Under the pieces are notes generated by a model. The model had not been told where the DNA came from. It saw only the letters and a program-made list of their open reading frames with translations, and made no database searches. A program made the translations under genes and the position numbers. Positions 12,061 to 13,790 of a stretch of 32,000 nt of DNA are shown here, in pieces. Within the stretch, counting starts at the first letter, position 1. Each line of letters opens with the position of its first letter. The stretch comes from Candidatus Thorarchaeota archaeon (lineage in GTDB: Archaea; Asgardarchaeota; Heimdallarchaeia; Hodarchaeales; Hodarchaeaceae), in contig JBHLRO010000006.1 of NCBI GenBank assembly GCA_048882505.1, positions 60,001 through 92,000 of the forward strand, given 5' to 3'.

Positions 12061-12675
12061 TTACAGGTAGAAGCTCAAGATTCCAAACCTCCGATTTTCA
12101 TCGTCTAGGATCTCAGTATATCGTTTCAGGATAGCTACACATATGAAGAGGCCAACCGCTGTTGTGAACACACCAAGGACCTGTGCGATCATAAGCAGCA
12201 CCAGAAAACGTAGACCCCAGGATCTAGCCGATCGTAATTGACTTGATCGGTTATTGGATTTATTGTTGTTAATATGGGAAATCCTGTCAATCATAGAAAA
12301 CCCGATCATTGGCAGCATTATCTGGATATCCGCAATTTCGGGATCCAGCTTGTTTAAGATTTGACGCAGAAAGTAGGTAGAGAAGCCTACGAAGATTAGA
12401 TTATACATAATCCCTCTTGTCAGCCCCGAGAGTGGATTCACGGGACTGATCAATCCCCAATCACCGACCAGTGATTGGGGGGGAGCTAAGAAATAAGCAA
12501 GTCCGCCTACAGGAACATATTGTCCAGATATGGCGTCCCCTCTAAATGTTCCCAACAAATAAACCAGGATATCTGGCGAATTCTGGCCCCCACTTGTAAG
12601 AACATGCCAAACCAGCTGTGCCAGAAATGATAACCCTGAGAACATGACAGAAGTTATAATAACAGGAATAATCAT
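12061..12675 (-). CDS. secY: SecY/Sec61alpha paralog, C-terminal part (TM7-TM10); in frame with 12703..13554 across a single TAG
   Basis: YLMIIPVIITSVMFSGL matches TM7 (YTSNIPIILQSALVSNL); GLAYFLAPP matches GLCYYLSPP; IAQVLG..TAVGLFICVAILKRYTEI matches TM9/TM10 (LADFLG..GTGILLAVTIIYQYFEI). Confidence 0.8.
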   Translation of the reverse strand: MIIPVIITSVMFSGLSFLAQLVWHVLTSGGQNSPDILVYLLGTFRGDAISGQYVPVGGLAYFLAPPQSLVGDWGLISPVNPLSGLTRGIMYNLIFVGFSTYFLRQILNKLDPEIADIQIMLPMIGFSMIDRISHINNNKSNNRSSQLRSARSWGLRFLVLLMIAQVLGVFTTAVGLFICVAILKRYTEILDDENRRFGILSFYL

Positions 12676-12702
12676 AAGATAAAGAATATTTCCCTGATAC
12701 TC

Positions 12703-13554
12703 CTAGCTACGGTTCTCTTTTAGTCGGTTCTTGATGGCAATTGTGAACTTGAAAGCACCAAGGTAGTTTAGCAAGAGGAAAAAGATAATAGTAACCAAAA
12801 AAGATAATAATGAATATGCAGGGAGGTTAAGGTTATTTTGGGGATCATATCGAAACAATAATGCCATTATTGCGGCAAACACGTCCTCATGACTGATCCA
12901 GGAAAGAAAGGCGAGTAAAAATCCTCGATTTGATAAAATGCCGCTTTTACCCTCTGAAACTGCTTGGATAGAAAAAAGGTACATGAATAGATCAAGCCCT
13001 ATTGTACTAAGGATAAATAAGGCTATACCAGAGCCATACCCCCAACCTTTGGCTACAACTTCATCTAGGTAGATTGCAATAATCCCCCCTATAATTAATT
13101 GGACAAAGATGCAAAGTTGCGCAGGTAACGGTAGTTTAGTGCCAAAAAATCCGCTGAACGTTACTAAAAGGGCGCCCAGGATTGTGAAAGTGATTGCCAT
13201 ACCTTTTAGGATTGCATTGTAGCTAATTTTTCCTCTTAAGGACTCCAAATCGTTTTCAGCGGTTTTTTTAAACAGGAGAAGTTGCATAACAAGGCCAGCC
13301 AGAAGAATCGGAAATATCCCCAGTGTTCCTATGTATCCCAAAGGCGGAGCATAAATCACCCTGAAGTAAGCAAAGGGATCTGCTTCTCCAACGTTTGCCA
13401 GAATTAATGGTATGGAAATCAAAAGGGAGTACCCTGTAAATGCCATGAATGTCCACAAAAGCTTCTCCTTAGGGGAAAGATCCTGTGAAGGGTGTTTAAC
13501 CGTGGGAAATGTTGTCCCAATCCGTCTGAAAAATTCAAGAAACATCGGTATCAT
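12703..13554 (-). CDS. secY: SecY/Sec61alpha paralog, N-terminal part (TM1-TM6), ending at an internal amber codon
   Basis: P.V..P...LSPKEKLLWT (TM1), ADPFAYFRVIYA (plug), LGIFPILLAGLVMQLL (TM2b), QLIIGGIIAIYLDEVVAKGWGYGSGIALFI (TM4-5). GTGAGG RBS upstream of ATG 13554. Confidence 0.9.
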   Translation of the reverse strand: MIPMFLEFFRRIGTTFPTVKHPSQDLSPKEKLLWTFMAFTGYSLLISIPLILANVGEADPFAYFRVIYAPPLGYIGTLGIFPILLAGLVMQLLLFKKTAENDLESLRGKISYNAILKGMAITFTILGALLVTFSGFFGTKLPLPAQLCIFVQLIIGGIIAIYLDEVVAKGWGYGSGIALFILSTIGLDLFMYLFSIQAVSEGKSGILSNRGFLLAFLSWISHEDVFAAIMALLFRYDPQNNLNLPAYSLLSFLVTIIFFLLLNYLGAFKFTIAIKNRLKENRS

Positions 13555-13589
13555 GTTTTTTCCTCACTAGGATATTTTCGACCGTCATA

Positions 13590-13790
13590 TTACGAAAAAG
13601 ATCTTCCCAGGATAAAAGACACTATCAACCGGACCAAGAATGAGAATAATCCAAAGACCGCAAGTCCAACTGCTGTTTTTTGCACGAGCGTAATAACTTC
13701 TGATTTTGTCGGAGGATTGGAAATTAACAGAGGTTGTGAGTCCTCCCGAAGTGATCTGCGAGATGCCCTCTTCTCCTCTGAGTTTTCCAT
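13590..13790 (-). CDS. secE: SecE/Sec61gamma paralog (66 aa)
   Basis: SNPPTKSEVITLVQKTAVGLAVFGLFSFLVRLIVSFI matches the SecE/Sec61gamma hinge-plus-TM pattern (KP.R.EF..IA..TAIGF...G.IGF.VKLI). ATG 13790; directly upstream of and co-oriented with secY. Confidence 0.75.
   Translation of the reverse strand: MENSEEKRASRRSLREDSQPLLISNPPTKSEVITLVQKTAVGLAVFGLFSFLVRLIVSFILGRSFS

Follow-up and report, generated by a model that had tools for sequence, protein, structure and literature searches.

A second SecY-SecE pair beside a membrane-anchored regulator gene in a Heimdallarchaeial genome: a candidate accessory translocon with a nonsense codon in its channel gene

Accessory Sec channels are otherwise familiar from Gram-positive bacteria, plastids, and eukaryotes. 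In Arabidopsis chloroplasts, SCY2 and SECE2, working with SECA2, make up a second Sec translocon. The accessory system of Gram-positive bacteria consists of SecA2 and SecY2 with Asp1-5 and exports serine-rich glycosylated adhesins; the small membrane partners Asp4 and Asp5 presumably take the roles of SecE and SecG there. Among eukaryotes, the yeast Ssh1 complex and vertebrate Sec61A2 represent paralogues of Sec61α, of which Ssh1 docks ribosomes, is strictly co-translational, and shares Sec61γ (Sss1). Here we describe a stretch of 32,000 nucleotides (the window; positions 60,001 to 92,000 of contig JBHLRO010000006.1, assembly GCA_048882505.1) in a Heimdallarchaeial metagenome-assembled genome (MAG), in which a second secE gene, secE2, stands directly upstream of a second secY gene, secY2, itself interrupted by one in-frame TAG. 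In the literature that we searched, we met neither archaeal SecY paralogues nor an archaeal second SecE paired with one, which is not proof of novelty. The genome, termed G000, measures 4.3 Mb and is 94.5% complete; unprefixed coordinates are window positions, and the canonical copies are called SecY1 and SecE1.

The locus shares features with each of these systems and differs from all of them. As in plastids, channel and clamp subunit have both been duplicated and retained together, and both are more diverged than the housekeeping pair. The plastid system, however, has a dedicated SecA2 motor and resides in a different membrane, whereas no SecA match above cut-off was obtained in the G000 genome and the two channels presumably share one membrane; the duplication in G000 is, moreover, confined to two species, and its SecY2 is interrupted. 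With the Gram-positive system, the G000 pair has in common a divergent second SecY encoded away from the housekeeping locus, a variable cell-surface region, and a small membrane partner. In contrast to that system, a scan of the window open reading frames (ORFs) yielded no SecA2, Asp1-3, glycosyltransferase, or serine-rich substrate gene, the channel is of the archaeal Sec61 type, and the neighbouring genes differ between G000 and its sister species, G016. Like Ssh1 and Sec61A2, SecY2 is a lineage-specific duplicate of the Sec61α type beside an essential copy, but unlike Ssh1 it is without docking loops and has a γ-like subunit of its own.

We lean, though not strongly, towards the view that SecY2, SecE2, and an adjacent regulator make up a lineage-specific accessory module, deficient in ribosome docking, that is intact in G016 and freshly inactivated in G000. 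An earlier note on this DNA had considered the pair relevant to Sec61 diversification before eukaryotes; this tempting picture of a pre-eukaryotic relic is corrected here to that of a local duplication, broken in G000. Extra Sec61-like channels are common in this Asgard genus (12 of 22 species), from near-canonical to extremely diverged, and the genus offers a natural series for how a Sec61-type channel becomes re-specialised.

The SecY2 and SecE2 proteins

A profile search of the G000 contigs placed the canonical secY at C16:53081-54532 (Pfam, 220.6 bits), with the window copy at 66 bits and marked as containing one TAG. The canonical secE lies on C24, between rpoB and spt5/P0, and its window counterpart scores more weakly. 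In total, G000 has two SecY and two SecE loci, and only the window pair is adjacent; the window genes are second copies, as the earlier note had supposed. It was also right that no Sec61β gene is found in the flanks (the only one in G000 is on C18) and that ribosomal-protein, adk, ftsZ, and spt5 genes are absent, which holds across the whole window. Its expectation of a housekeeping secY within the spc ribosomal cluster fails in this genome: no ribosomal or adk gene occurs within 1.5 kb of the canonical secY on either side, so that an “orphan” placement is not unusual in this lineage. The genes that do flank the canonical secY (L001, G000:C16:51794-56011) are not rpL15 or adk but encode a membrane protein rich in sequons and an unknown protein of 429 aa. 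Across the genus, canonical secE(-spt5) and secY are 27-29 kb apart, which makes the adjacency of secE2 and secY2 a derived arrangement. Outside the genus, most of the 235 Asgard genomes sampled gave one SecY match.

The genes and spacers of the locus are on the minus strand. secE2 (13590..13790) encodes a 66-aa paralogue of SecE/Sec61γ with a C-terminal transmembrane (TM) clamp helix, and is followed by a spacer of 35 nt (13555..13589) that contains a GAGG element resembling a Shine-Dalgarno sequence ~9 nt 5' of the secY2 ATG. The short spacer and this element suggest that the two genes are co-transcribed. The secY2 frame (13554..12061) is SecY-like and spans 497 codons. The earlier note took it to be full-length, but codon 284 (12703..12705), in cytosolic loop 6/7, is TAG; in G016 it is TGC (Cys). 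Codons 1-283 (12706..13554) cover TM1-TM6, the plug, and the first strand of the loop 6/7 hairpin, and codons 285-497 (12061..12702), in the same frame, cover TM7-TM10 and a remodelled loop 8/9. The gene for a helix-turn-helix (HTH) regulator of 236 aa (11197..11907) follows 153 nt downstream; it has two winged-helix domains, for which Pfam gives HTH_24/HVO_0163_N, preceded by an N-terminal TM helix, and then MarR-like/DUF7343.

Against the Pfam SecY model (PF00344, cut-off 32.2), the read-through SecY2 protein scores 68.5 bits and its N-terminal part 64.1 bits, with no match for the C-terminal part alone. The archaeal SecY equivalog model NF006341 (cut-off 300) gives 401.7 bits for SecY1 and 160.5 bits for SecY2. 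Judged by these scores, SecY2 is a SecY homologue but not an NF006341 equivalog, and it is 39% identical to SecY1. An AlphaFold2 model of the read-through protein (predicted local distance difference test (pLDDT) 76.9, predicted template-modelling score 0.77) has 10 TM helices, at residues 28-47, 81-95, 106-134, 143-168, 176-194, and 249-266 in the N-terminal part and 290-319, 374-402, 432-459, and 463-485 in the C-terminal part, with a short plug helix at 62-65. Foldseek TM-scores of this model are 0.77-0.81 to Sec61α and 0.66-0.75 to SecY of Methanocaldococcus jannaschii; the best matches in the Protein Data Bank (PDB) are eukaryotic Sec61α, and the Ssh1 structure 2ww9 is among the structural matches.

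The pore ring, which we take to be I81, V85, I179, I183, I292, and L449 of human Sec61A1, reads I, L, I, I, I, I in the aligned columns of SecY2 and is fully hydrophobic. At the lateral gate, the polar triad that presumably corresponds to T86/Q127/N300 of Sec61 is T/E/D in SecY1 and, by alignment, L/G/G in SecY2. An alignment of 17 canonical SecY copies from the genus has 343 invariant columns, and SecY2 retains 135 of them. Those kept number 14/18 in extracellular loop 5/6 and 15/19 in extracellular loop 7/8, but only 2/18 in cytosolic loop 6/7 and 2/24 in cytosolic loop 8/9, and the G-W/H-R and YIP motifs of these docking loops are gone. That the docking loops were lost while the core of the channel and its outer loops were kept speaks for an altered use of the protein and not for simple decay.

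SecE2 falls below the thresholds of the family models: it scores 20.3 bits with Pfam SecE (PF00584, cut-off 22.7), which SecE1 passes, and 16.8 bits with TIGR00327 (cut-off 36.2), for which SecE1 reaches 49.7 bits. A phmmer comparison with the canonical SecE of the genome nevertheless gives an E-value of 2.9e-11, and on this similarity the 66-aa product is a SecE homologue, as the earlier note had proposed. In an alignment of 21 sequences, columns P27, E31, V32, T39, G42, G47, and R54 are invariant between SecE2 and 19 canonical SecE proteins of the genus, and the TM segment is ~50% identical. The architecture is that of a tail-anchored protein, with a hinge proline ahead of a single C-terminal TM helix, and the region of the N-terminal amphipathic helix is replaced relative to canonical SecE. 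The C-terminal tail, LGRSFS, resembles the SecE1 tails of G000 and G016 only. SecE2 of G016 is 59% identical to that of G000 and is without any Pfam match.

Co-folding of the two SecY2 pieces encoded in the window with SecE2 scored 0.53, compared with 0.00 for the best of three controls; at least 68% of contacts were shared between runs, and the partner pLDDT was at least 57. Among 78 solved complexes and 108 mismatched pairs, 51 and 2, respectively, attained the mark, and passes at 0.60 or below came from only 5 of the solved complexes and from all 4 passing mismatches. As the complex is a solved, textbook one and family likeness may account for the score, this is weak support, and the pass is best read as likeness and not as proof that these particular copies bind each other.

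Sister-species orthologue and origin within the genus

Among the 22 species of the genus, an orthologue of SecY2 was found in G016 only. It is intact, with 497 aa and 73% identity to the G000 protein, and the gene order is the same: SecE2 is 36 nt upstream, and a regulator orthologue (65% identical) is 152 nt downstream. Synteny between the G000 and G016 contigs extends over >25 kb, and the proteins flanking the locus are 87-98% identical, whereas the SecE2-SecY2-regulator block is about 60-73% identical and sits within a variable stretch; the conservation of the flanks marks the block as orthologous and fast-evolving. No further SecY2 orthologue was present among 8000 candidates scored from a set of 5.8 billion proteins, or in GTDB genome contigs or JGI metagenome contigs. 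Pfam is blind to SecY2 of G016 and to one paralogue of another species, G018, despite clear phmmer homology, and copy counts based on Pfam would therefore miss such paralogues.

Selection was gauged by pairwise ratios of non-synonymous to synonymous substitution rates (dN/dS) between G000 and G016, values that are blind to recent loss. For SecY2, the ratio is 0.22 (dS 0.74), with 0.23 (dS 0.72) before the stop and 0.20 (dS 0.76) after it; canonical SecY1 gives 0.056 (dS 0.70), and the regulator 0.15 (dS 1.51). The ratio for SecE2 is 0.88 (dS 0.30), made up of 1.76 (dS 0.24) over the N-terminal 26 codons and 0.51 (dS 0.33) over the TM part, and that for canonical SecE1 is 0.07 (dS 0.78). The pair is conserved in G016, and these ratios point to purifying selection on SecY2 and to weak constraint on SecE2.

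A maximum-likelihood analysis of 33 SecY copies nests the SecY2 proteins of G000 and G016 within the genus, with a stem 5.4 substitutions per site long. A constrained tree that makes them sister to SecY1 of the same two species has a slightly better likelihood and is not rejected (p value of the approximately unbiased test (p-AU) 0.63). The plug and TM4-5 motifs of SecY2 do resemble Sec61α, as the earlier note had observed, but SecY1 is far closer to human Sec61A1 (339 bits, as against 147 bits for SecY2), which indicates that these motifs were inherited and are eroding. Nested within the radiation of one genus and less like Sec61α than its canonical counterpart, SecY2 is not a pre-eukaryotic relic. 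The pair would instead be a recent and local duplication of the genus's own translocon genes, neither ancient nor foreign.

SecY2 is one of a wider set. In 12 of the 22 genomes, an extra SecY lies directly beside a homologue of the HTH regulator. Those of G007, G009 (a closed genome), G011, G014, and G017 are 73-79% identical to SecY1 of G000 and keep loops 6/7 (14-18/18) and 8/9 (20-24/24). G012 and G002 also have regulator-linked copies, that of G002 partial and that of G012 sister to the other G012 copy in the tree. The extras of G001, G013, and G018 are as diverged as SecY2, with loops 6/7 and 8/9 shortened or lost. The near-canonical extras share with SecY2 the linkage to the same type of membrane-anchored HTH_24/HVO_0163_N and MarR-like regulator and probably derive from the same ancestral module; they differ in having kept their docking loops and in being without a second SecE. 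A second SecE accompanies the extra SecY in G000 and G016 only, and the other genomes of the genus have one SecE each. Neither phmmer nor inspection of small ORFs revealed a SecE beside the divergent paralogues of G001, G013, and G018 or beside the near-canonical extras. The hypothesis that all regulator-linked copies form one old clade is rejected (p-AU 1.9e-7), which implies recurrent duplication or, in some species, homogenisation of paralogues by conversion.

Several individual copies deserve mention. G018 has four SecY genes, the canonical L013 and three others, L037 (C247), L038 (C277), and L039 (C289); the three extras are highly diverged (33% identity to canonical SecY) and have loops 6/7 and 8/9 deleted, and one diverged G018 copy adjoins an HTH regulator and an ATP-binding cassette (ABC) transporter. 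A SecY fragment at G010:C12:193571-193885, with four stops (one TGA, one TAG, two TAA), looks like a decayed extra copy, from which it appears that extra copies also die in this genus. The second SecY of G005 (L041, G005:C312:706-2091), on a contig of 2.1 kb, branches with class-level outgroups and not with the genus, and is probably contamination of that MAG. Near the extra SecY of G007, a low-complexity, Val-rich ORF of 78 aa (L028:2222-2458) is probably not a gene.

The in-frame TAG and competing explanations

The single TAG cuts secY2 into an ORF of 283 aa and one of 204 aa (start ATG 12675), and it falls where the second strand of the loop 6/7 hairpin begins. No start codon occurs between it and ATG 12675, which is residue 294. 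That the interruption is an artefact or a recoded codon, whether by sequencing or assembly error, by a chimeric MAG contig, or by use of TAG for pyrrolysine, we find barely credible. MAGs do contain errors, and recoding of TAG may occur in some Asgard lineages, since in three genomes of a different genus the only SecY has one in-frame TAG. The exact 283-aa product, however, is encoded with the same TAG in Logan assemblies of two separate runs, SRR30758835 (100% identity over 5.3 kb) and SRR20218960 (2 mismatches in 1559 nt), which rules out an error of sequencing or assembly, and the long synteny with G016 at high protein identity speaks against a chimera. Recoding as pyrrolysine is likewise ruled out, since in the G000 genome, 94.5% complete, no PylS or PylD match passes its cut-off and no tRNA-CUA is predicted, with or without introns allowed, and TAG is a common terminator that ends 27% of long frames and shows no excess over this usage at same-frame ORF junctions (48/150). 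Furthermore, G016 has Cys at the site and not Lys or TAG. From the two assemblies, the missing machinery, and the ordinary use of TAG as a terminator, it follows that the codon is a genuine nonsense codon in natural populations of the species.

What this means for function is a finer balance. Loss in G000, which the reading that we favour would entail, is indicated by the Cys codon of the uninterrupted G016 gene, the lack of a well-placed restart, the SecE2 ratio of 0.88, and the between-run polymorphisms, both of which are non-synonymous and fall in SecE2 (N25Y, R63G). Other observations weigh against the favoured reading as a whole. The pair is known from two species only, and its conservation rests on one comparison; SecE2 has been under little purifying selection; and the grouping of SecY2 with the divergent paralogues of G001, G013, and G018 (94/92 support) would mean an older duplication. 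There is one lesion in 497 codons and not a single frameshift, and the stop falls in an exposed loop already released from constraint in SecY2. Polarisable SecY2 substitutions are symmetric (13 in G000, 11 in G016), as are the terminal branches (0.39 and 0.37), so that there is as yet no sign of relaxed evolution in the G000 lineage, and secY2 of G000 may still be working as two pieces or by read-through. Taken with the low dN/dS, this symmetry implies that SecY2 was a selected protein for most of the divergence, and the stop would be either recent or tolerated. A module still functional in G000, with TM1-6 and TM7-10 (from ATG 12675) made as two polypeptides, or with the TAG read through, and assembling with SecE2, is thus a possibility that we take seriously while doubting it. 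It would account for the single lesion, the ratio of 0.20 beyond the stop, and the persistence in nature of an allele that recurs in two runs, one with other single-nucleotide polymorphisms; the break lies in a cytosolic hairpin not conserved in SecY2, AGGAG overlaps the stop, and the SecY protein of Escherichia coli can withstand being cleaved or split within its cytoplasmic loop C4. That AGGAG, however, is 24 nt from the only downstream start, an ATG four residues inside TM7 of the model; no suppressor tRNA or pyrrolysine machinery that could support read-through was found in the genome; pairwise ratios cannot detect recent loss; and the two polymorphisms in SecE2, like the intact G016 gene, point the other way. 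Broader, and unlikely in our estimation, is the proposal that the genus keeps a family of SecY-derived, non-docking channels under a membrane-anchored transcription factor, with a dedicated Sec61γ in one lineage and a natural two-piece SecY in G000; were it true, it would amount to a second, specialised translocon in an Asgard archaeon.

The picture originally put forward for this locus, that of an old, self-contained second channel through which the sequon-rich surface proteins encoded nearby are exported, with relevance for how Sec61 diversified before eukaryotes, now seems highly improbable, and its evolutionary part is largely refuted already. Some of its elements stand: there is a second SecY with a SecE-like partner of its own, in a block that is also present in G016; the best PDB matches are eukaryotic; large β-helix and SBBP/fn3 surface proteins are encoded within 8 kb; and a TTTGACAWT motif is over-represented and precedes, among others, secE2, the regulator gene, and the β-helix gene. 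The channel gene is interrupted in G000, however, SecY2 occurs in two species within a single genus's radiation, SecY1 is the closer relative of Sec61α, and the motif is only partly conserved in G016. Nor does synteny back the suggestion that the channel may serve the proteins on both sides, since the immediate neighbours differ: where G000 has the SBBP/fn3 and short β-helix genes, G016 carries STT3 and an ABC transporter. The orthologue of that STT3 is 82% identical, is the sole STT3 match in G000, and is on C24; a dedicated oligosaccharyltransferase beside the G016 module was accordingly rejected, the STT3 being the general AglB of G016, rearranged.

The sequence of events that we consider best supported, ending in inactivation in G000, would have begun with duplication of a Sec61α-like SecY, with a duplicated Sec61γ-like SecE placed directly upstream and a membrane-anchored HTH regulator downstream. 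SecY2 would then have diverged explosively, keeping the 10-TM fold, plug, hydrophobic pore ring, and extracellular loops while losing the conserved residues of ribosome-docking loops 6/7 and 8/9; in parallel, SecE2 would have swapped its cytosolic amphipathic helix. The product may have been a specialised channel without canonical ribosome docking, used post-translationally or with another partner; a conserved promoter region would have driven its transcription, with the neighbouring regulator in control. Selection would have maintained the module in the ancestor shared by G000 and G016, and secY2 of G000 would be a newly inactivated gene in which decay is starting, one instance of the repeated birth, divergence, and death of extra SecY copies in this genus.

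Two observations made elsewhere also concern stop codons. In the Asgard genus f20/g32, the single SecY of three genomes has a canonical score (~410 bits) and exactly one in-frame TAG each (G061:C60:8663-10099, G070:C5:280621-282057, and G051:C244:774-2156), which suggests recoding of TAG, possibly as pyrrolysine, in that genus. In G000 itself, ARAGORN called a tRNA-Sec (anticodon TCA) at G000:C16:58002-58095, ~3.5 kb from the canonical secY, and the genome therefore probably uses selenocysteine.

Upstream regions, candidate operators, and neighbouring genes

The region upstream of secE2 (13791..14021) has a TATA-like ATTTATT ~35 nt before the ATG. Its 232 nt align without gaps to G016 at 77% identity, the same as the genes, with blocks at 85-88%, whereas the distal spacer beyond it is 47% identical and gapped. 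Within it, a dyad at 13852-13872, GATTRAT-N7-ATYAATC, is a candidate operator; in G016 its two arms have changed in a matching way, so that the symmetry persists. A structured RNA was considered for the same region and rejected, as there was no Rfam match and the fold z-score was 0.17. The spacer between secY2 and the regulator gene (11908..12060) contains a block of 45 nt nearly identical in G016, the rest of the spacer having diverged, and a TTTAAA box ~30 nt before the regulator start; block and box are probably the regulator's own promoter.

TTTGACAWT occurs six times in the window, compared with 1.6 expected, and none of 100 shuffles reached six. The sites are at 9786-9794, 10731-10739, 11952-11960, 13789-13797, 13950-13958, and 27898-27906, five of the six thus lying between 9786 and 13958, and the cluster may mark a small regulon.

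The window contains no tRNA genes. Its remaining genes encode two NosD-type β-helix surface proteins and the SBBP/fn3 surface protein, together with a zinc-type dehydrogenase, a molybdenum cofactor (Moco) oxidoreductase, a DUF362 iron-sulfur protein, a Dpp transporter, and three M19 dipeptidases.

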